Source: a virus
Taxonomy: Duplodnaviria; Heunggongvirae; Uroviricota; Caudoviricetes
Direction: 5' to 3' (one strand)
IMG/VR virus record: IMGVR_UViG_2541047745_000013
Length of the DNA: 13,518 nucleotides
Position 1 is the first letter of the stretch, and every line of letters begins with the position of its first letter. A model generated the notes under the pieces. That model was not told where the DNA came from. It worked only from the letters and a program-made list of their open reading frames with translations, and ran no database searches. The position numbers and the translations under genes are program-made. This document shows positions 1 through 11,403 of the stretch, one piece after another.

Positions 1-819
1 ATGCGATTAGCCAGTCGTTTTGGTTATGCGAACCAGGTACGTCGTGATCGTCCGCTGACACACGAAGAACTGATGCGCCATGTACCGAGTATTTTTGGGG
101 AAGACCGACATACCTCCCGCAGTGAACACTATGCGTACATTCCCACTATCACCGTCCTGGAAAATCTGCAGCAGGAAGGCTTTCAGCCATTCTTCGCCTG
201 CCAGACCCGCGTACGTGACCCGGGCCGCCGGGGATACACAAAACACATGCTGCGCCTGCGCCGTAACGGGGAGATAAACGGACAACATGTCCCTGAAATT
301 ATTCTGCTCAACTCCCATGACGGTACCTCCAGCTACCAGATGCTGCCGGGTTACTTCAGATTCGTCTGCCAGAACGGCTGCGTCTGCGGTCAGTCTCTGG
401 GGGAAGTCCATGTGCCCCACCGGGGAAATGTGGTGGACAGAGTCATTGAAGGGGCTCACGAGGTAGTGGGCGTTTTTGACCGGATTGAGGAAAAGCGTGA
501 TGCCATGCAGTCTCTGGTTCTGCCGCCACCGGCACGTCAGGCACTGGCACAGGCGGCGCTGACTTACCGTTATGGTGATGAACATCAACCCGTCACCACT
601 GCCGACATTCTGACACCACGACGCCGGGAGGATTACGGTAAGGACCTGTGGAGCGCATATCAGACCATCCAGGAGAATATGCTGAAAGGCGGGATTTCCG
701 GCCGTAGTGCAAAAGGAAAACGTATCCATACCCGCGCCATTCACAGTATCGACACCGACATCAAGCTCAATCGCGCATTGTGGGTGATGGCGGAAACGCT
801 GCTGGAGAGTATGCGCTGA
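1..819 (+). CDS. DUF932-domain protein (YfjQ/YafZ family)
   Basis: 272-codon ORF with ATG at window position 1 and TGA at 817-819. The translation (MRLASRFG ... NRALWVMAETLLESMR) matches my recollection of YfjQ-type proteins. Upstream context is not visible, so the start cannot be verified. Confidence 0.8.
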   Translation: MRLASRFGYANQVRRDRPLTHEELMRHVPSIFGEDRHTSRSEHYAYIPTITVLENLQQEGFQPFFACQTRVRDPGRRGYTKHMLRLRRNGEINGQHVPEIILLNSHDGTSSYQMLPGYFRFVCQNGCVCGQSLGEVHVPHRGNVVDRVIEGAHEVVGVFDRIEEKRDAMQSLVLPPPARQALAQAALTYRYGDEHQPVTTADILTPRRREDYGKDLWSAYQTIQENMLKGGISGRSAKGKRIHTRAIHSIDTDIKLNRALWVMAETLLESMR

Positions 820-910
820 TGTTGTTTCCCTGAAAGTGCAACCCTGACTCACGTCTGTATCAGTCCCCAGGCATTCTTCCATTCATTTGCTTTTTATAAG
901 GAATAGTCTC

Positions 911-1396
911 ATGACAACCTCTTCGCATAATTCCACCACACCTTCTGTTTCCGTAACAACTGCATCAGGGAATAACCAGTCTCAACTGGTTGCCACTCCT
1001 GTCCCTGATGAACAGCGCATCAGTTTCTGGCCGCAGCATTTTGGCCTCATTCCACAGTGGGTGACCCTGGAGCCCCGTGTCTTCGGCTGGATGGACCGTC
1101 TGTGCGAAGACTACTGCGGTGGTATCTGGAATCTGTACACCCTGAACAACGGCGGGGCATTTATGGCCCCTGAACCGGATGGCGATGATGACGAAACATG
1201 GGTACTGTTCAATGCCATGAACGGTAACCGCGCTGAAATGAGCCCGGAAGCCGCCGGCATTGCCGCCTGTCTGATGACGTACAGCCATCACGCCTGCCGT
1301 ACGGAGTGTTATGTCATGACGGTTCATTATTACCGTCTGCGGGATTACGCCCTGCAGCATCCGGAATGCAGCGCCATTATGCGCATCATTGACTGA
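911..1396 (+). CDS. Antirestriction-family protein (YfjX/YafX-like)
   Basis: The open frame begins at TTG 887, but ATG 911 has an AAGGA 9 nt upstream and gives the MTT... N-terminus expected for this family. TGA stop at 1394-1396. Conserved-looking core WPQHFGLIPQWV ... GGIWNLYTLNNGG. Confidence 0.8.
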   Translation: MTTSSHNSTTPSVSVTTASGNNQSQLVATPVPDEQRISFWPQHFGLIPQWVTLEPRVFGWMDRLCEDYCGGIWNLYTLNNGGAFMAPEPDGDDDETWVLFNAMNGNRAEMSPEAAGIAACLMTYSHHACRTECYVMTVHYYRLRDYALQHPECSAIMRIID

Positions 1397-1411
1397 AAGG
1401 GGGCCGGAACA

Positions 1412-1888
1412 ATGCAACAGATTTCCTTTCTGCCCGGAGAAATGACAACCAGAGAGCGCAGCCTCATTCAGCGGGCCCTGAAAGCCCTGGACCGCCATCT
1501 TCATGAACCCGGCGTGGCCTTCACCTCCACCCGTGCGGCACGGGAATGGCTGATTCTGAACATGGCGGGACTGGAGCGTGAAGAATTCCGGGTGCTGTAT
1601 CTGAATAACCAGAATCAGCTGATTGCCGGTGAAACCCTCTTCACCGGCACCATCAACCGCACGGAAGTCCATCCCCGGGAGGTGATTAAACGCGCCCTGT
1701 ACCACAATGCCGCTGCCGTGGTGCTGGCACACAATCACCCGTCCGGTGAAGTCACACCCAGCAAGGCAGACCGCCTTATCACGGAACGTCTGGTACAGGC
1801 ACTGGGCCTGGTGGATATCCGGGTACCGGACCATCTGATAGTCGGTGGCAGCCAGGTTTTCTCCTTTGCGGAACACGGCCTGCTTTAA
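1412..1888 (+). CDS. RadC-like JAB/MPN-domain protein (YeeS/YfjY/YkfG family)
   Basis: 158-aa ORF with AGGGGG ribosome-binding site upstream of ATG 1412. Contains the HNHPSG JAMM-type motif (…VVLAHNHPSGEVTPSKAD…). TAA stop at 1886-1888. Confidence 0.9.
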   Translation: MQQISFLPGEMTTRERSLIQRALKALDRHLHEPGVAFTSTRAAREWLILNMAGLEREEFRVLYLNNQNQLIAGETLFTGTINRTEVHPREVIKRALYHNAAAVVLAHNHPSGEVTPSKADRLITERLVQALGLVDIRVPDHLIVGGSQVFSFAEHGLL

Positions 1889-1956
1889 CCCGTCACCGTC
1901 ACAACCACATCACACCTGTTTTCACTTTTATCTTCTGTCTTCAGAGGTATCCCATC

Positions 1957-2178
1957 ATGAAAATCATCACCCGTGGTGAAGCCATGCGTATTCACCGTCA
2001 GCATCCGGCATCCCGTCTTTTCCCGTTCTGTACCGGCAAATACCGCTGGCACGGCAGCACTGAAGCGTATACCGGTCGTGAAGTGCAGGATATTCCCGGT
2101 GTGCTGGCCGTGTTTGCTGAACGTCGTAAGGACAGTTTTGGCCCGTATGTCCGGCTGATGAGCGTCACCCTGAACTGA
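1957..2178 (+). CDS. DUF987-domain protein (YeeT/YpjJ/YkfH family)
   Basis: 73-aa ORF MKIITRGEAMRIHRQHP…RLMSVTLN, at the expected position between the RadC-like gene and the antitoxin. Confidence 0.8.
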   Translation: MKIITRGEAMRIHRQHPASRLFPFCTGKYRWHGSTEAYTGREVQDIPGVLAVFAERRKDSFGPYVRLMSVTLN

Positions 2179-2291
2179 TGTTCCGTCACCCGGAAAACGA
2201 GTACGACTGGCTGAGCTCAGACGCCGCTGTGGATGAGGCCCTGCTCATAAACGAATACACCTTTACCGAAGGCGGTCTGCGCGCCGGCTGA
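2178..2291 (+). CDS. Candidate 37-aa small ORF coupled to the DUF987 gene (speculative)
   Basis: ATG at 2178-2180 overlaps the DUF987 TGA (2176-2178) in a TGATG arrangement. Reads MFRHPENEYDWLSSDAAVDEALLINEYTFTEGGLRAG, stop TGA 2289-2291. No ribosome-binding site other than coupling; may be a remnant. Confidence 0.2.
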   Translation: MFRHPENEYDWLSSDAAVDEALLINEYTFTEGGLRAG

Positions 2292-2340
2292 CCTGTCATC
2301 GTTAAACCATTCTTAACCGATTTTCTGTGAGGATTTTATC

Positions 2341-2709
2341 GTGTCAGACGCACTCTCCGGGACAATGCTTCCCGACGACAATCACGACCGCCCCTGGTGG
2401 GGGCTGCCCTGCACCGTGACGCCCTGTTTCGGGGCACGTCTGGTGCAGGAGGGTAACCGCCTGCATTACCTTGCCGACCGCGCCGGTATCAGAGGCCTGT
2501 TCAGCGATGCAGATGCGTACCACCTGGACCAGGCCTTTCCGCTGCTGATGAAACAACTGGAACTCATGCTCACCAGCGGTGAACTGAATCCCCGCCATCA
2601 GCATACCGTCACGCTGTATGCAAAAGGTCTGACCTGCAAAGCTGACACTCTCGGTAGCGGTGGTTACGTTTATCTGGCTGTTTATCCGACGCCCGAAACG
2701 AAAAAGTAA
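2341..2709 (+). CDS. cbeA: Type IV toxin-antitoxin antitoxin CbeA (YeeU family)
   Basis: GTG start at 2341 with GAGGA about 8 nt upstream. The 122-aa translation ([49 protein letters not shown]…) closely matches my recollection of E. coli YeeU/CbeA. Confidence 0.9.
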
Positions 2710-2798
2710 ACCACCGGAATAATCGTCTGTTCCGGCCCGGTGCATTACAGCACCACTCTTCCCACAATTTACTCTCTCATATCAGGAATATCTTCAGT

Positions 2799-3176
2799 AT
2801 GAAAACATTACCCGACACACACGTACGGGAGGCATCGCGCTGCCTGTCTCCGGTTGAAATCTGGCAGACACTGCTCACCCGGTTACTGGACCAGCACTAC
2901 GGCCTCACACTGAATGACACACCGTTCGCTGATGAACGTGTGATTGAGCAGCATATTGAAGCAGGGATTTCACTGTGTGACGCGGTGAACTTTCTCGTTG
3001 AAAAATACGCCCTGGTGCGTACCGACCAGCCGGGATTCAGCCCCTGTACCCGCTCTCAGTTAATCAACAGTATCGATATCCTCCGGGCACGCCGGGCAAC
3101 CGGCCTGATGACCCGCGATAACTACAGAACGGTAAATAACATTACCCGGGGTAAGCATCCGGAGGCGAAACAATGA
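2799..3176 (+). CDS. cbtA: Type IV toxin-antitoxin toxin CbtA (YeeV/YkfI/YpjF family)
   Basis: 125-aa ORF with the conserved core [52 protein letters not shown] as recalled for YeeV. Lies immediately downstream of cbeA. Confidence 0.9.
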
Positions 3177-3661
3177 AACTGGCCCTGACGCCGGAAGCCG
3201 ATAGCATTAACGTGCAGGCACTGAACATGGGGCGCATTGTCGTTGACGTCGATGGTGTTACTCTCGCTGAACTGATTAACGTGGTCTGTGATAATGGCCA
3301 CTCCCTTCGTATTGTTGATGAATCTGACCGGGCCTCAACAGACTGCATGCCACCATTTGCTGCCCTTACCGGTATACGCTGCAGTACCGCACATATCACG
3401 GAAACGGACAACGCCTGGCTGTACTCGCTGTCACACCAGACTAATGACGACGGCGAATCAGAATGGATTCATTTTACCGGCAGCGGCTATCTGTTACGTA
3501 CTGATACGTGGCCGTATCCGGTTCTGCGGCTTAAACGACTGGGCCTGTCCAGAACGTTCCGCCGTCTGGTTGTCACTCTCATCCGCCGTTATGGCGTCAG
3601 TCTCATTCATCTGGATGCCAGTGCCAGATGCCTGCCGGGTTTACCCACTTTCAACTGGTAA
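3173..3661 (+). CDS. YeeW-like protein (DUF-type family that follows cbtA in CP4-type islands)
   Basis: 162-aa ORF whose ATG (3173-3175) overlaps the cbtA stop (ATGA at 3173-3176). Assignment rests on position and gene order, not on a recognised motif. Confidence 0.65.
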
Positions 3662-3672
3662 CCAGGAACAAC

Positions 3673-3870
3673 ATGAAATCATTAACCACGGAAACCGCAC
3701 TGGATATTCTGATTGCGTGGCTGCAGGACAATATCGACTGCGAATCGGGGATTATCTTCGACAACGATGAGGATAAAACGGATTCGGCAGCACTGCTGCC
3801 CTGTATTGAACAGGCCAGGGAAGATATCCGTACCCTGCACCAGTTGCAGTTTCTGCAACAGAACTGGTGA
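3673..3870 (+). CDS. DUF957-domain small protein
   Basis: ATG 3673 preceded by AGGA at 3663-3666. 65-aa product MKSLTTETALDILIAWLQDNIDCESGIIFDNDEDKTD…; the longer frame from 3628 lies inside the previous gene and is less likely. TGA stop 3868-3870. Confidence 0.7.
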   Translation: MKSLTTETALDILIAWLQDNIDCESGIIFDNDEDKTDSAALLPCIEQAREDIRTLHQLQFLQQNW

Positions 3871-3899
3871 GTCTTACTCACCAGACTTCATTCCACTGA

Positions 3900-3931
3900 C
3901 GCCAGCCTGAACAGGGCTGGCGTTTTCATTT
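3900..3931 (+). terminator. Rho-independent terminator after the cbeA-cbtA-yeeW-DUF957 block
   Basis: 7-bp GC-rich stem CGCCAGC (3900-3906) / GCTGGCG (3916-3922) with a 9-nt loop, followed by TTTTCATTT. Confidence 0.7.
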
Positions 3932-3984
3932 ATCTGCAAAAAGGAATATCGATTATATCTGAACTCACAGCCTCCCGTCCGGAA

Positions 3985-4809
3985 GTGGTCAACGGACATA
4001 CGGACGTTATCGGCTCAACCAGTATCCGCCACATTCTGGCTGTACGACAGAGTACATTGCTGCAAATCGACACACTTATCCGGCAACTGGCTGAAATCTC
4101 AGCAATGACAGTAAGTATTGGCGGTAAAACTGCACTGGACTGGGCCATGAAACAGGATTTTCGCTGCGGTTTCTGGCTGATGGAGAAACCTGAAATCGCA
4201 ATGAAAGCCATCACCCGGAATCTCGATCGCGAACTCTGGCGTGACCTGATGCAACGTTCCGGGATGCTTTCCTTAATGGATGCACAGGCCCGTGAGACAT
4301 GGTACCGGTCACTGGAGTACGATAATGTCCCGGAAATCAGTGAAGCAAACATTCTGAACACATTTAAACAACTGCACCAGAATAAGGATGAGGTGTTTGA
4401 GCGAGGGGTGATCAACGTCTTCAGGGGACTGAACTGGAATTACAAAACCAATTTACCCTGCAAATTTGGCAGTAAAATTATCGTCAACAATCTGGTGAGA
4501 TGGGACCGGTGGGGATTTCATATTGTCACCGGACAGCAGGCTGACCGGGTTGCTGACCTGGAAAGGATGCTGCACCTGTTCAGCGGCTGGCCCATCCCCG
4601 ACAACCGGGAAAATATCATCATCCGTCTGGATGACCACATTCAGTCCGCTCAGGGTCAGGAGTGCTATGAATATGAAGATGAGATGTTCAGCATCAGATA
4701 CTTTAAGAAGGGCTCCGCGCACATCACGTTCAGAAAACCGGAACTGATTGATCGGCTAAATGACATCATTGCGAAGTATTATCCAGAAATAATCCCATAC
4801 AATATCTAA
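3985..4809 (+). CDS. DUF4942-domain protein (conserved terminal gene of CP4-type islands); start codon uncertain
   Basis: 274-codon ORF ending TAA 4807-4809. The first canonical start in frame is GTG 3985 with no convincing ribosome-binding site; the frame is open back to 3871. Family call from recall of the gene order CbtA / YeeW-like / DUF957 / DUF4942. Confidence 0.65.
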   Translation: MVNGHTDVIGSTSIRHILAVRQSTLLQIDTLIRQLAEISAMTVSIGGKTALDWAMKQDFRCGFWLMEKPEIAMKAITRNLDRELWRDLMQRSGMLSLMDAQARETWYRSLEYDNVPEISEANILNTFKQLHQNKDEVFERGVINVFRGLNWNYKTNLPCKFGSKIIVNNLVRWDRWGFHIVTGQQADRVADLERMLHLFSGWPIPDNRENIIIRLDDHIQSAQGQECYEYEDEMFSIRYFKKGSAHITFRKPELIDRLNDIIAKYYPEIIPYNI

Positions 4810-4853
4810 TAAAACTAATCATTTCTTGTTGTGACTGATTTAGTTGAACCATA

Positions 4854-4899
4854 CTGCATGGTCGAGTAGACAGGGTATCTCAGACCATGCATGTATTTT
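4854..4899. terminator. Possible bidirectional terminator between convergent DUF4942 gene and integrase
   Basis: Inverted repeat TGCATGGTC (4854-4862) / GACCATGCA (4882-4890) followed by TTTTT (4895-4899). The 19-nt loop is long for an intrinsic terminator. Confidence 0.3.
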
Positions 4900-4901
4900 T
4901 A

Positions 4902-6221
4902 TCATCTGTTCCCAAATTTTATATGAATAACATTATCCGGAGCATTCTGCTGCACAGTAATGACGTTATTCATAATAAAATTCCCCCATTCTATAAATAA
5001 ATTTTTTAATTTTTCAGCTTGTTGTCCGACTTGATATGTTCGTATTAAACGGTCTTTGGGTACATGATTTAACAGTAACTCTATTAGGCGCTCTGGAGCA
5101 TCAAGGTATTCAGCGCATCCAGTCGCAACACTTCTACGCAGATCATGAGGAGAAAATGGAGTAAGTTCGGCTAGATACTTAGAGCGAACCCTTTCTAACG
5201 CGCGAGTCAGAGCGTCATTTGTGATGGGAAAGTCAGGTTTGCTAGTAGAACCAAAAACATATGCACCTTCAGTGAATTCACGTTGTGTTTTTATTAAAGA
5301 AAGCATATACGGATGTAAAGTAACAATATGGCTTTTCCCATTTTTAGTGGCTGGTATGGTCCAACGCTCTCCATTAATTTGATCCCAGCGCATTTGTGCC
5401 GCTTCAGAGCGGCGCACTCCTGTGAAAATAATCAAACGGAGTGCATTTGCGACAGAATGAGATAATACCACACTAGAGGAAATTCCATAGCCACCAGATG
5501 CAATGGAGCCTCCTCCAACAGTAGCATCATCCAAAGCCTTCCATAGCATCCGGAGTTCATTCTCAGGAAGCCATCGCTCGCGAGGTTTATTCATCGATGC
5601 ACCAAACATTGCTGGTTTGAGCAGTCGTGCTGGGTTATGCTCAAGCATACCCTGTAAGTTGGCATGATCAAGAGTCATATTTAGAATAATTAATCCTTTA
5701 CGAACTGCTTCAGAACTGGTTTTTCTTACATTACTGAGATGTTCAAAAATAACGCTTTTGGTAAGTTCGTCAATGCGAAGGTTTCCTAATGCTTTTTCAA
5801 GGTGGCGGTGATAAGTCCCTTCATAATCTGCAAGGGTTCTGGTGCTAATTGGTTTGCTTGTCTTTCTGAATTCTATCCAATCTTTCCATAATTCAGAGTA
5901 AATAATCATTTGTTCATTTTTTTGTTTTTCATTTTTTCTAATATGACGAGGATCTATACCTTTTCTTACTAATTCAATTGCATCCGCATGAGCTTTACGA
6001 GCTTGAGCTAATCCCATGGCAGGGTAACTACCTAGTGTTAATTTAGCTGGCTTTTGAGCTATTCGATAACGATAAATCCAGCTTTTATTGTCGCTACCAT
6101 AACGAACGCGTATAAAGAGTCCTCCCCCAGCTTTAGATTTTACAGCAAATAAGATTTCTTTTTCTTCTTTAGTAACGGTCAATGAAGCCAATTGTCTGTC
6201 TTGTGTAATAGTAAAAGTCAT
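4902..6221 (-). CDS. Tyrosine recombinase / phage integrase (P4-type; plausibly IntF-like of CP4-6-type islands)
   Basis: Open frame 4902-6257 on the - strand. Preferred start is the ATG at 6221-6219 (MTFTITQ…), which places the GGGL arm-binding motif at a typical distance; ATG 6257 is the alternative. C-terminal catalytic signature is present (…RRSEAAQ…, HDLRRSVAT, LNHV, RTYQ). Sampled 60-nt stretches are about 37-40% GC versus 52-60% in flanking genes. Confidence 0.9.
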   Translation of the reverse strand: MTFTITQDRQLASLTVTKEEKEILFAVKSKAGGGLFIRVRYGSDNKSWIYRYRIAQKPAKLTLGSYPAMGLAQARKAHADAIELVRKGIDPRHIRKNEKQKNEQMIIYSELWKDWIEFRKTSKPISTRTLADYEGTYHRHLEKALGNLRIDELTKSVIFEHLSNVRKTSSEAVRKGLIILNMTLDHANLQGMLEHNPARLLKPAMFGASMNKPRERWLPENELRMLWKALDDATVGGGSIASGGYGISSSVVLSHSVANALRLIIFTGVRRSEAAQMRWDQINGERWTIPATKNGKSHIVTLHPYMLSLIKTQREFTEGAYVFGSTSKPDFPITNDALTRALERVRSKYLAELTPFSPHDLRRSVATGCAEYLDAPERLIELLLNHVPKDRLIRTYQVGQQAEKLKNLFIEWGNFIMNNVITVQQNAPDNVIHIKFGNR

Positions 6222-6386
6222 ATCTTCAGCCTTTTGGGTACACAGCGGGGTACACATTTAACATGATATCATCAGAAACAAGGCGAAACATCTTGATACT
6301 GCATTTGTGTGTATTTTATTGATTTTTATATATTTTTTATTGTATGTTGAAACGGCTGTGAACATCTTGAATCACTGGTCTCGCTA

Positions 6387-6432
6387 ATTCGTAATGCGAA
6401 GGTCGTAGGTTCGACTCCTATTATCGGCACCA
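6387..6432 (+). other. 3' 46 nt of tRNA-Thr(CGU) (thrW-type): pseudo-tRNA / att core copy
   Basis: ATTCGTAATGCGAAGGTCGTAGGTTCGACTCCTATTATCGGCACCA matches the anticodon loop, T-arm, 3' acceptor strand and CCA of E. coli thrW as I recall it. The upstream sequence has no complementary 5' acceptor strand (GCCGATA) or D-arm, so this is not an intact tRNA. Confidence 0.85.
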
Positions 6433-8886: not shown

Positions 8887-9720
8887 ATGAACATCGAAAA
8901 AAGCAGATTAATTTCTGAGGCTGCCCCTCATCTGAACGCCTCTCTGGGCACAATTAACGGTAATGAATTTGCCGCAATTGTCCCGGTTATTCCTGGTCAT
9001 ATCGGTGGGCGTGAAACCAATATTGTTAGCGCAAAAGCGTTACACAAAGCGTTGGGCGTGGGAAAAGACTTCTCTACATGGATCACTGATCGCATCTCTG
9101 AATATGACTTCACCATTGGGCACGATTACTCAGTCCATAAAACTATTTCCCCAAATTTGGGGAAAATCCCGAATGGCGCGGCTTACAGCAAGATTAAGCA
9201 GTCTGGAAGACCCGGCAAAGACTATCTGTTAAGTGTCGGAATGGCGAAAGAACTGGCAATGATCGAACGCAATGATCAGGGGCGCGCTATCCGCCGTTAT
9301 TTCATCCAGTGCGAGGAAGAATTACAGCGTAGCGTGCCTGAAATCGCCGCCCGCTATCGTCGCCAGCTAAAAGCCCGTATCAGTGCCGCAAACAACTTTA
9401 AGCCAATGTGCGATGCGCTGAATATGGCCCGTGCCGAGATGGGGAAAACGACGCAGCAACACCACTACACAAACGAGAGCAATATGATTTCTCGTATCGT
9501 TCTTGGTGGGCTAACTGCTAAGCAGTGGGCGCGGATAAATGGCTATTCTGGCGAACCTCGCGACCATATGAACGCAGAACAGCTTGAGCACCTCTCATAT
9601 CTCGAAAGCACCAATATCACGTTAATTGATATGGGCATGGAATATGAGCAGCGCAAAGGAGAACTCACCCGCCTGTCGCAACGCTGGCTCGCTAAGCGTC
9701 TGGAGGCGGTCCATGTTTAA
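8887..9720 (+). CDS. Phage antirepressor-like protein (AntA-domain-like N-terminal region)
   Basis: 277-aa ORF with GGAG upstream. The region …ALHKALGVGKDFSTWITDRISEYDFTIGHDY…GRPGKDYLLSVGMAKELAMIERNDQGRAIRRYFIQCEEEL resembles AntA-type antirepressor domains as I recall them; not verified by search. Confidence 0.55.
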   Translation: MNIEKSRLISEAAPHLNASLGTINGNEFAAIVPVIPGHIGGRETNIVSAKALHKALGVGKDFSTWITDRISEYDFTIGHDYSVHKTISPNLGKIPNGAAYSKIKQSGRPGKDYLLSVGMAKELAMIERNDQGRAIRRYFIQCEEELQRSVPEIAARYRRQLKARISAANNFKPMCDALNMARAEMGKTTQQHHYTNESNMISRIVLGGLTAKQWARINGYSGEPRDHMNAEQLEHLSYLESTNITLIDMGMEYEQRKGELTRLSQRWLAKRLEAVHV

Positions 9721-9895
9721 GCCGACAGGAACACCACAACCTCAAAAACGCTACAAAGATGCCCACGGAGCACTCGTTACTGTCGAAAGCGTGTCTCACA
9801 ACCGAGTGACGTTTTATCGCGACGGGTATCAATCGCCATGCGTACAACCGCTGGCACGTTTCATGAAGGAGTTCGCGGAGGTTAACAAATGCTAA
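9713..9895 (+). CDS. Small hypothetical protein (60 aa; possibly DUF4222-like)
   Basis: ATG 9713 with GGAGG at 9702-9706, overlapping the upstream TAA (9718-9720). Product [60 protein letters not shown]. Confidence 0.55.
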   Translation: MFKPTGTPQPQKRYKDAHGALVTVESVSHNRVTFYRDGYQSPCVQPLARFMKEFAEVNKC

Positions 9896-10956
9896 CCGCC
9901 CAGAAGAAGACATTTTCACTGGCTGGTATGTCGCCAAAATCCAGCAATATGACAGCAAAGTCAGGCATTAATACAGCAGATACAAGCAAAGTTTATCATT
10001 TGCTGGTGGTAGGAGCGGATGCCTTAACTATGTCAGAAATTACGGTCGATGGTGTTAGCGTTGAGAAGGTCAGCGGCTGCGCCAGAGAATTTCTGGTCGT
10101 AGATGGCTTTCTCTGCTCGCGTAGTGACTCCACAAAAACCTTCGTCCACGCGCGTGACGTTAACGAAATGAGCGCGATGTACTGTGCTTCTGGTTCTTCC
10201 AATAGTGAGTTTTCGGAGTCCATAAAAAAGAGCTTGCCGTTATGCGGCAACACGGTTTATGGTTATAAGGCACCTCATAAAACGGGTGCCGGGATTGGCG
10301 TCCTGGTAAATCGAATGGCGACATATGACGCGCCGAGCGTCTTTTTTTATGTCGTAGGTCTGACTCACCCATTTTTTGGGCGTTGGTGTATAATCCAGCG
10401 CCTTTGTCAATCAATGGTGGCTCAGGCAGGGGCTTCTTCGGAAGCGCCGGTATCCATTCGAGCCGGTTACGCCAACCCTGTCTGGGCTACCACCAGCGAA
10501 ATTGGCGTTTCCGGTGGTAGCGTTACATGCTATCGAATGGAGGCTGCCACATGCTGGCTACTACCCCTACCCAAAAACCGCAATTTATCTGGATTATCGC
10601 CGCAGTTCGCCGCGATTGCCCGACAATTACCGCCAAAATTCATCATATTGCTGCCGAGTCTGAACGCGATGCTCGCCGTTCTCTGGTGCGCGATCACGTC
10701 TGCTTTTTTGCTGGTCGTATCCGCATGGAGGTGGCACATGATTAAAACCTACGATGTGCATATGGATCCCCTCGAACGCACAAGCCAGATCATCACACTG
10801 ACAGAAGTGATTAACGACATTCTGGTGAGCAACTCTCCCTCACGAGACGAAAGACTGAAGGCGTTACTCGCGATATTGGATCTCGCCGTTCGTGACGTTC
10901 ATTTCCTGCTGGAAGGTGGCGAAATGCCAGTAAAAACGGGGGAAACCAATGAATAA
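9889..10956 (+). CDS. ORF of unresolved extent: strong coupled start at 9889, frame open for 355 codons through a terminator-like hairpin, a promoter-like element and the Icd-like gene
   Basis: ATG 9889 with GGAGG at 9877-9881 overlaps the upstream stop. The other two + frames have many stops across 9889-10330. The first roughly 145 codons look coding; beyond about 10330 the translation is A/S/G/L/P-rich and resembles off-frame reading. No in-frame stop until 10954-10956. Confidence 0.3.
10327..10348 (+). terminator. Candidate intrinsic terminator (short GC stem plus T7 run)
   Basis: GACGC (10327-10331), loop GCCGA, GCGTC (10337-10341), then TTTTTTT (10342-10348). The stem is only 5 bp. Confidence 0.35.
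10360..10394 (+). promoter_or_regulatory. Candidate sigma70 promoter (perfect -10 TATAAT with upstream TG; weak -35) for the icd-like operon
   Basis: TATAAT at 10389-10394 preceded by TG at 10387-10388 and a T-rich tract at 10372-10377. No good TTGACA at 17-bp spacing. Confidence 0.35.
10400..10530 (+). ncRNA. Candidate structured leader / immunity-type antisense RNA region (P1 c4 / P4 CI-like by position) upstream of the icd-like gene
   Basis: Hairpin GCTTC-TTCG-GAAGC at 10432-10445 (UUCG tetraloop closed by C-G). A 9-bp stem GCTACCACC (10486-10494) / GGTGGTAGC (10513-10521) with an 18-nt loop. A related motif TGGTGGCTCAGG at 10415-10426. Translation of this stretch looks non-protein-like. 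Confidence 0.3.
10551..10745 (+). CDS. Host cell-division inhibitor Icd-like small protein
   Basis: ATG 10551 with GGAGG at 10540-10544. 64-aa product [64 protein letters not shown] resembles Icd-like proteins of P4-type prophages as I recall them. TAA stop 10743-10745. Confidence 0.55.
   Translation: MLATTPTQKPQFIWIIAAVRRDCPTITAKIHHIAAESERDARRSLVRDHVCFFAGRIRMEVAHD
10738..10956 (+). CDS. Hypothetical small protein (72 aa)
   Basis: ATG 10738 with GGAGG at 10727-10731 overlaps the icd-like stop. Acidic, helical-looking product. Same frame as the long 9889 ORF. Confidence 0.5.
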   Translation: MIKTYDVHMDPLERTSQIITLTEVINDILVSNSPSRDERLKALLAILDLAVRDVHFLLEGGEMPVKTGETNE

Positions 10957-11143
10957 CTCAATTAATACCCCTCGCCTTACGTCCGCACTTCAATTAATCG
11001 AGCAAGCAGCGGCTGTCCTGGTTGCTGTCAGTCTTTCGGCTGAAGAAATGGACGCTACTGATGTCGTGGATGCGATTAAAGCGTGCTCATCTTTGGTTAA
11101 CGATGCCCGTGCAGAGCTGGTAATTCTTGGGGGTGAAAAATGA
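10949..11143 (+). CDS. Hypothetical small protein (64 aa)
   Basis: ATG 10949 with GGGGGA upstream overlaps the previous stop by 8 nt. Product [64 protein letters not shown]. Confidence 0.55.
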   Translation: MNNSINTPRLTSALQLIEQAAAVLVAVSLSAEEMDATDVVDAIKACSSLVNDARAELVILGGEK

Positions 11144-11403
11144 ATATCAACTTAATTTATCGTCATCCGTGTGAGCTGGAAATTGAATCATTGCTGAGCC
11201 GTGAAGAGCCATATCCAGACACATTCACTCTTGCAGATCGCACGACTGAACGGCTTACCAGAGCGCGCACAGGTCTGGTTCATGTGATGAATGAGATTCT
11301 TCCATCGGTGGGAGGGGAACAGGCGACAGTAATCACTAGCTGGCTACAAAAAGTTACCTCTCTGATAGATATCAGTTTAATCGATGCGGAGAGTGCGAAA
11401 TGA
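11140..11403 (+). CDS. Hypothetical protein (87 aa)
   Basis: ATGA overlap with the previous stop at 11140-11143; G-rich ribosome-binding site upstream. Confidence 0.6.
   Translation: MNINLIYRHPCELEIESLLSREEPYPDTFTLADRTTERLTRARTGLVHVMNEILPSVGGEQATVITSWLQKVTSLIDISLIDAESAK

Follow-up and report, generated by a model that had tools for sequence, protein, structure and literature searches.

A frame kept free of stop codons across the RNA immunity region of an EcCIMP1-like/P4-like satellite is a probable equivalent of phage P4 eta

According to PMC10111431, translation of the eta frame of phage P4 prevents premature termination of transcription and thereby bypasses immunity; the same paper, citing Forti et al. 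1999 (J Bacteriol 181:5225), states that eta holds an internal constitutive promoter whose transcript is quickly terminated via an interaction between CI and seqA, and that full-length Eta is produced solely from the upstream late promoter. PMC10111431 also reports that the Rfam C4 and isrK models pick up relatives of CI and seqA in phage-inducible chromosomal islands (PICIs), and P4 SeqA has been named a structural homolog of IsrK (PMC4825925). EcCIMP1 is a phage-inducible chromosomal island of Escherichia coli that is mobilised by the P22-like phage Kapi1, and the gene for an 'Ash family protein' is strongly conserved among EcCIMP1-like islands (PMC11773190). The subject of this report is a 1068-base open reading frame (ORF) at 9889-10956 on the + strand of the IMG/VR virus record IMGVR_UViG_2541047745_000013 (Caudoviricetes), a stretch of 13,518 nucleotides that was analysed whole and is called the window. 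With a probability of about 0.65, this ORF is the equivalent of P4 eta in an EcCIMP1-like/P4-like satellite, a frame held stop-free across the RNA immunity region.

The ORF has 355 codons and begins at an ATG (9889-9891) that follows a Shine-Dalgarno sequence, GGAGG (9877-9881), after a gap of 7 nt. This start overlaps the stop codon TAA (9893-9895) of a DUF4222 gene on the same strand (9713-9895; Pfam PF13973, 85 bits, and annotated as such by the Prokaryotic Genome Annotation Pipeline (PGAP) in a 100%-identical genome), and because of the overlap the two genes are considered to be translationally coupled. Downstream, the frame crosses in order an IsrK/seqA-like small RNA (sRNA) with its terminator, a C4/CI RNA, the leader of an icd gene, the Icd-like gene itself and a gene of 72 codons. 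It contains no stop codon in any part, and the +1 and +2 frames of the same strand have 7 and 9 stops within 9889-10257, 4 and 4 within 10258-10550, and 2 and 1 over icd. Positions 9600-11200 of the window are 100% identical to the complete genome of E. coli cq9 (NZ_CP031546), where the same ORF bears the RefSeq/PGAP label "ash family protein" (WP_001437061.1); the ORF is therefore not an error of reading or assembly, nor a sequencing indel. The only Pfam match of the 355-aa product is Phage_ASH (PF10554; residues 124-232, 105 bits), and these residues are encoded by nucleotides 10258-10584, which are the IsrK-like RNA, the spacer, the C4 RNA and the icd leader. Neither Pfam nor NCBIfam has a match to the 5' 123 codons.

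The sRNA of the IsrK / P4 seqA type occupies 10270-10347 on the + strand (Rfam RF01394, 67.1 bits against a gathering score of 50), and a terminator scan places an intrinsic terminator at its 3' end, with a stem at 10327-10341 followed by T7. The antisense immunity RNA of the C4 / P4-CI type lies at 10410-10497 on the + strand and is matched over the full length of its model (RF01695, clan CL00128, 79.5 bits against a gathering score of 45). It has two recognition loops, TCCATTCGA (10453-10461) and ACGCCAA (10469-10475), and each is complementary to boxes on both sides of C4. The first pairs with TCGAATGG(A) in IsrK (TCGAATGG at 10311-10318) and with TCGAATGGA (10533-10541) in the seqC-like icd leader (10498-10550, +), whereas the second pairs with TTGGCGT at both sites (10295-10301 in IsrK and 10502-10508 in the leader). 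The leader box TCGAATGGA overlaps the Shine-Dalgarno sequence GGAGG (10539-10543) of icd. The boxes in IsrK, C4 and the icd leader co-vary across loci, with at least 15 specificities, none of which brings a stop codon into the long frame. Close relatives are nearly identical in the flanks, yet differ in step at the boxes of all three segments, the leader box being TCTGAAGGA in locus L003, GTACAAGGA in L002, ACACAAAGGA in L004 and TTCACAGGA in P4. This anatomy is that of the P4-type (seqA, CI, seqC) and P1-type (c4, icd) RNA immunity systems.

Both internal promoters are predictions from sequence only. The candidate IsrK promoter (10234-10262, +; TTGCCG and TATGGT separated by 17 nt) would start transcription near 10270, which is the 5' end of the match to the Rfam isrK model; it scores 8/12, under the threshold of the promoter scan. 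A TATAAT at 10389-10394 (+) is a candidate -10 element for the C4 promoter, and it varies among relatives, being absent from L004 and deleted in L086. The promoter scan of the region called neither of the two. The original prediction, made from the letters of the window alone, had described a stop-free frame of this length, with a good ribosome-binding site and coupling to the gene before it, that runs through a hairpin and T-run, a promoter, a structured leader and an Icd-like gene in another frame. The mechanical ORF list and its translation, the terminator scan and the matches given here and below bear this anatomy out; of the promoter, the TATAAT is there, and a good -35 element and a call by the promoter scan are missing. 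The leader was not recognised as a C4/CI RNA, nor the hairpin as the end of an IsrK/seqA-like sRNA, nor P4 eta and kil as the precedent.

A third segment of the icd leader, GGTGGTAGC (9 nt, 10515-10523), is complementary to the 3' arm of the stem that closes C4, and also co-varies among loci (GGCGGTGAC, GGCGATAGC and GGTGGTGGA). It may form a third pairing or compete with the folding of C4.

Judged by homology, position, coupling and span, the long ORF belongs with P4 eta. A single frame of P4 (L005, 1393-2037) spans the P4 matches to isrK (1513-1590) and C4 (1698-1785), and its last 65 codons are those of Kil. Phage_ASH matches residues 37-161 of P4 Eta (82 bits, with the full model covered), and a tblastn search with residues 124-232 of the window product matches P4 with E = 8e-12. 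The two frames have in common a start upstream of the immunity promoter and RNAs, coupling to the preceding gene, a single stop-free span over seqA/IsrK, CI/C4 and the leader of kil/icd, homology through Phage_ASH, a small downstream gene nested at the 3' end, and a following chain of overlapping genes that leads to a primase. The Icd-like gene of the window (10551-10745, ending in TAA, +; 64 aa), which is the first gene after C4, matches NCBIfam NF033153 with 71.7 bits against a cut-off of 25, and its product is 43% identical to P4 Kil in an alignment, which makes it a clear homolog of Kil and a predicted cell-division inhibitor of the Icd/Kil type.

Several features set the two frames apart. 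P4 eta shares both the frame of kil and its stop codon, whereas the window frame reads icd in the +1 frame and bypasses Icd, so that the gene nested in it is the next one, of 72 codons, and the frame ends 211 nt past the icd stop codon. Because kil/icd is not the in-frame 3' end of the window frame, the latter is classed as a variant of the eta type. The window frame has 355 codons in contrast to about 199 in P4, its 5' third is unrelated to that of P4 and carries a homolog of the P22 pac site, and its upstream partner is the DUF4222 gene rather than an alpA homolog.

Other described systems resemble the window in part. In the immI loci of P1 and P7, as in the window, the two recognition loops of a C4 RNA are complementary to boxes lying over the ribosome-binding site of icd, the first gene is icd-like, and heteroimmune variants are distinguished by their boxes; unlike in the window, the gene after icd is that of an antirepressor (ant) instead of replication genes. 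In the P1-like phage RCS47, the frame stops right after the IsrK-like element and none extends across c4. The immI region of RCS47 (L146; coordinates 1393-1599, 1491-1569, 1614-1701 and 1756-1977) has a 68-codon ORF, coupled to pacB, that spans the IsrK-like element and ends just before C4. In the isrK-orf45-anrP region of Gifsy-1, as in the window, transcription either terminates at IsrK or reads through into a translationally controlled operon, but there a short gene, orf45, follows IsrK, is coupled to the antirepressor and is conserved as nucleotides rather than as protein, and a long frame entering from upstream is not described (PMC4825925). By gene set, the window resembles EcCIMP1, which has an integrase, AlpA, an antirepressor, an 'Ash family protein' and a primase (PMC11773190), and a 100%-identical relative of the window also has P22-like ejection-protein genes. 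In the EcCIMP1 paper, Ash is handled like any other protein-coding gene, and neither RNA genes nor an analogy with eta are mentioned.

The openness of the frame upstream of icd is maintained and is not due to chance, as shown by relatives that were collected blind to the state of the long frame. Icd/Kil similarity was the sole basis for picking 70 loci from different species; in 67 of them no stop codon interrupts the icd frame over 300 nt or more before the icd ATG, and one more (L007) has its +1 frame open for 665 nt, as in the window, which brings the stop-free total to 68 of the 70; the two other frames are open for just 11-168 nt. A pooled sample of 133 usable loci forms 66 clusters at 95% identity, of which 65 have no stop codon of the long-type frame in the 300 nt before icd, whereas stops are always present in the other two frames, at averages of 2.5 and 4.9. 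At 85% identity, all of the 26 clusters are stop-free. In 105 of 110 loci, C4 is separated from the terminator of IsrK by a spacer of 33, 48, 75, 87, 93, 123 or 132 nt, and all seven lengths are multiples of three. Indels are compensated in two loci, where a 1-nt deletion is accompanied by another that restores the frame, of 38 nt in L086 and of 14 nt in L004. The P1-like phage RCS47 serves as a control, in that IsrK, C4 and icd are all present and the frame coupled to pacB is closed at 1599, before C4; conservation of the RNAs alone therefore does not force the frame to be open. For the window by itself, a rough product gives about 3e-3 as the probability that the whole distal part is open by chance, in line with the range of 10^-3 to 10^-2 put forward in the original prediction, and the part over icd would be open with P ~0.19 (codon shuffling or synonymous resampling). 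Chance in the distal part, which was one of the explanations offered there, thus fails upstream of icd, where 65 of 66 clusters are open and spacers come in threes, and may account for the stretch over icd.

Over the same region, the amino acid sequence of the frame is not conserved. The ratio of nonsynonymous to synonymous polymorphism (pN/pS) of the Ash region in the long-ORF frame is 0.88 (561 pairs), and for icd it is 0.31 when the gene is read in its own frame and 1.68 when it is read in the +1 frame. The 72-codon gene has a pN/pS of 0.25. Towards the 5' end, the ratio is 0.46 for the 5' third, a weak value from 14 close sequences, and 0.38 for the first 49 codons, which are moderately constrained. 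A model made with AlphaFold2 from an alignment of 31 sequences has a mean predicted local distance difference test score (pLDDT) of 34, with residues 1-272 under 50 and only the 72-codon gene above 50. Thus, when Phage_ASH was considered as a folded domain, the hidden Markov model match was found, and neither purifying selection nor a predictable fold was detected. What homologs conserve is the openness of the full-length frame and not its amino acid sequence: the frame is selected for openness, not for a particular protein, and openness without amino acid constraint is what the P4 mechanism predicts.

The alternative that survives best, although it is unlikely, is that the ORF is an artefact of annotation that is never translated. 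The conserved RNA genes would then have inherited their lack of stops, the openness of the flanks would be due to chance, and the last 72 codons would belong to a separate, real gene whose frame merely happens to agree. The coincidence of the Phage_ASH match with IsrK and C4 fits this idea, as do the high pN/pS and low pLDDT of the Ash region, the annotation of one architecture in three different ways by PGAP, and the openness over icd, which is within reach of chance in the window and has a parallel over kil, where the unused and unneeded +1 frame is also open in 39 of 66 in-frame P4-type loci. It does not explain why the variable parts (the spacer, the boxes and the 5' third) are stop-free in the long frame only, in 65 of 66 clusters, or why indels are compensated, and the ORF has a start codon with a Shine-Dalgarno sequence that overlaps the upstream stop codon. 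A spurious ORF was given less weight because the loci chosen without regard to the ORF are nearly all open, because the spacers come in threes, and because RCS47 has the same RNAs with a closed frame.

Less probable again is a genuine regulator of the 'Ash / Bro-network' kind with a folded domain, in whose gene the RNA genes are merely embedded. The PF10554 family does exist and scores 105 bits here, Ash/Eta is treated in the literature as a Bro-network protein, the first 49 codons show the moderate constraint noted above, and an N-terminal motif, K-x-x-SLAG-L/M, recurs in the versions from E. coli and Klebsiella. Against such a protein stand the pN/pS of the domain region (0.88) and of the overlap with icd (1.68), the failure to predict a fold, 5' parts that are unrelated between lineages, C-terminal parts drawn from four or more genes without relation to one another, and the presence, within the 5' third, of a piece of a terminase gene in antisense. 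Moreover, changes in the 'domain' track the complementarity between RNAs.

The shift of the window frame relative to icd comes down to one nucleotide. Between a GCC and the icd ATG there are 2 nt ('AC') in the window and 3 nt in P4 (GCC-AC-ATG versus GCC-ATC-ATG), and the distance from the 5' end of C4 to the icd ATG is 137 nt in the window and 135 or 138 nt in P4-type loci. Because of the 2-nt spacer, the long frame is +1 to icd, and since the next gene, which starts in an ATGA-type overlap with the icd stop codon, is also +1 to icd, the frame ends at the stop codon of that gene. When IMG/VR was searched by the pattern of the 2-nt junction alone, 67 loci were found, 65 of them usable, and the +1 frame is open upstream of icd and through icd in 65 of 65. 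In nearly all of these it then carries on, without a shift, into a downstream gene, of which there are at least four unrelated kinds, and its end lies 172, 181, 202, 211 or 868 nt past the icd stop codon. The 868-nt case is that of an integrase-family gene behind an Icd variant of 81 aa, where the frame reaches about 521 codons. The IMG/VR clade with the 81-aa Icd comprises about 32 loci within L077-L143, for example L081 (2250-3824), in which Phage_integrase and Phage_ASH are found in one ORF.

Several icd alleles carry the 2-nt junction, and clusters of +1-type proteins in E. coli, Klebsiella and Raoultella have from hundreds to more than 1000 members. No description of the shifted arrangement was found in the literature searched, itself incomplete, so that, as far as found, the +1 variant is widespread and seemingly undescribed. 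The junction has two forms, GCCAC-ATG-CTG and GCCGC-ATG-GCT, which were considered as signs of independent origins of the 1-nt shortening; such origins are not claimed, since recombination is possible.

A recent defect, that is, a pseudogene or fusion caused by a 1-nt deletion or an assembly error, is very improbable: although the spacer before the icd ATG is one nucleotide shorter than in P4-type loci and PGAP flags one relative as 'frameshifted', the 2-nt junction with its open frame recurs with several icd alleles and several downstream genes and in complete genomes at 100% identity, and icd retains its own Shine-Dalgarno sequence and ATG under purifying selection. Two explanations offered in the original prediction fall with it, a gene of about 145 codons whose stop codon was lost, because no relative has a stop there and in-frame relatives run to the icd stop codon, and a frameshift or sequencing indel, in view of the same architecture in all 65 junction-selected contigs, the identical complete genome, and clusters with thousands of members. 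An unusually long overlapping gene came closest of its four explanations to the result.

Whether the +1 frame of icd is itself kept open by selection is a separate matter, for which the evidence is suggestive only. In clusters at 90% identity, the +1 frame over icd is open in 10 of 10 of the +1 type and 19 of 30 of the in-frame type (Fisher p = 0.024); at 97% identity the counts are 23 of 23 and 35 of 61 (p = 3.5e-5), a value inflated by relatedness. Where in-frame relatives have TGG TTA ATC, which gives TAA when read +1, the corresponding letters in +1-type loci are ATT or CTT. The openness over icd was rejected as strong stand-alone evidence, given the result of the shuffles and the 39 of 66 in-frame loci in which it is also found. 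A null model of synonymous resampling from the icd sequences themselves gave values up to 0.89, but is circular.

The observations can be assembled into a mechanism on the model of P4. In the immune state, only the internal promoters would fire, giving rise to the IsrK/seqA-like sRNA, which would end at its own terminator (10347), and to the C4/CI RNA; C4 would pair with the IsrK boxes and over the icd ribosome-binding site, blocking translation of icd and letting transcription terminate before the replication genes. In the induced state, transcription would come from the upstream operon of alpA, orf143, antA and the DUF4222 gene, and ribosomes would be handed into the long frame by the start/stop overlap at 9889-9895. 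Their passage through the sRNA, its terminator, C4, the target boxes and icd would prevent the RNA structures from forming, keep Rho off the transcript and render downstream expression insensitive to immunity. It would be the openness of the frame that matters, and not the product encoded. In P4, Forti and colleagues are said to have found in 1999 that nonsense mutations in eta are polar and that their suppression restores read-through. By analogy, translation of the window frame would prevent termination.

The +1 arrangement might, more doubtfully, be an adaptive variant of eta, in which no toxic Icd/Kil would be made by the ribosomes that arrive from the induced upstream operon and shield the ribosome-binding site of icd and the stretch sensitive to Rho; these ribosomes would then pass, still elongating, into the next gene. 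If this reading is true, there would be an N-terminally extended isoform of the following gene, which is of the integrase family in one clade, and selection would hold the +1 frame of icd stop-free.

Some points weigh against the window frame being an equivalent of eta. Many of the loci compared are related, so that the counts overstate their independence, and only 6 clusters are left at 75% identity. At least one close relative, L002 (strain Z1323CEC0009), has a stop codon in the 5' third, and full-length translation is thus not universal. The openness over icd goes only weakly beyond expectation (P 0.19 in the window; Fisher p = 0.024 for the 90% clusters). That the frame is translated, and that this affects termination, is an extrapolation from P4, and an intrinsic terminator (10327-10347) sits within the long frame.

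The 5' third of the frame contains, in antisense (10037-10152, - strand), a fragment of about 116 nt that is approximately 87-88% identical to the middle of the P22-type small-terminase gene (gene 3). Within it, 10122-10143 align with the annotated pac site of P22 (AF527608, positions 4-25): the window has GAAGGTTTTTGTGGAGTCACTA where P22 has GAAGATTTATCTGAAGTCGTTA, identical at 16 of 22 positions, and the alignment then continues for about 85 nt at about 93% identity. A search of the window with the P22 pac 22-mer allowing up to 3 mismatches found none; the homolog, with 6 mismatches, was found by alignment. Positions 10122-10143 are a candidate for a packaging site captured by the satellite for use with a P22-like helper. 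The EcCIMP1 study describes the packaging mechanism of such islands as unknown and mentions no pac site (PMC11773190), and the homolog offers a concrete hypothesis for how EcCIMP1-like islands may be packaged by P22-like helpers. In L002, a cluster of substitutions at about 830-868 (about 10106-10125 of the window), within the segment of pac homology, creates the stop codon mentioned above, and the long frame therefore restarts at an internal ATG (262 codons).

The nested gene of 72 codons (10738-10956, +) is in frame with the long ORF and forms its 3' end. Its ATG at 10738 overlaps the icd stop codon as ATGATTAA, downstream of GGAGGTGG; it is a separate coding sequence (CDS), WP_001426173.1, in strain Z1323CEC0009, and Pfam and NCBIfam have no match to it. 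Upstream of the long ORF are genes for an integrase, AlpA, an AntA/B antirepressor and the DUF4222 protein. Downstream, small genes that overlap one another follow in a chain as far as a TOPRIM/DUF927 primase, as seen in the 100%-identical relative. The left part of the window, from 1 to 6400, matches another island that is adjacent to the present one in related genomes, with annotated DUF4942, DUF932 and DUF5983 proteins, the antitoxin of a toxin-antitoxin system and a second integrase; it includes a 451-codon ORF on the minus strand (4902-6257).

Among relatives, PGAP gives at least three incompatible annotations of one architecture (L001 10290-11357; L002 590-1446; L003 878-1446; L004 1262-1989), as a full-length 'ash family protein', as a partial ash pseudogene with a separate Icd-like CDS, or as an 'Icd-like protein, frameshifted; internal stop'; the frame of L003, although annotated as 'partial', has its 355 codons intact. 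In the RefSeq record of P4, the 3' 137 codons of the frame are labelled 'cI gene product, transcriptional repressor'. A detector of P4-like satellites uses PF10554 as its profile for epsilon and equates Ash with epsilon (PMC8628076), whereas PF10554 matches the P4 eta frame (L005 1393-2037) over seqA and CI, and epsilon is the next CDS (2030-2317).

The "ash family protein" (PF10554) is a very common annotation, found in E. coli and Klebsiella genomes by the thousand, and what is conserved at the core of this family is a pair of regulatory RNA genes read as protein. It seems to be for the sake of being translated, and not for the product, that the frame is kept open. Analyses of gene content, inferences of "domain-swapping" and functional guesses that involve the Ash family should allow for this RNA core. 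As a probable equivalent of eta, the window frame would extend the principle of P4, by which translation counteracts termination across an immunity switch made of RNA, to PICI-like satellites as a large group, and also to a frame-shifted form that would bypass the toxin gene.

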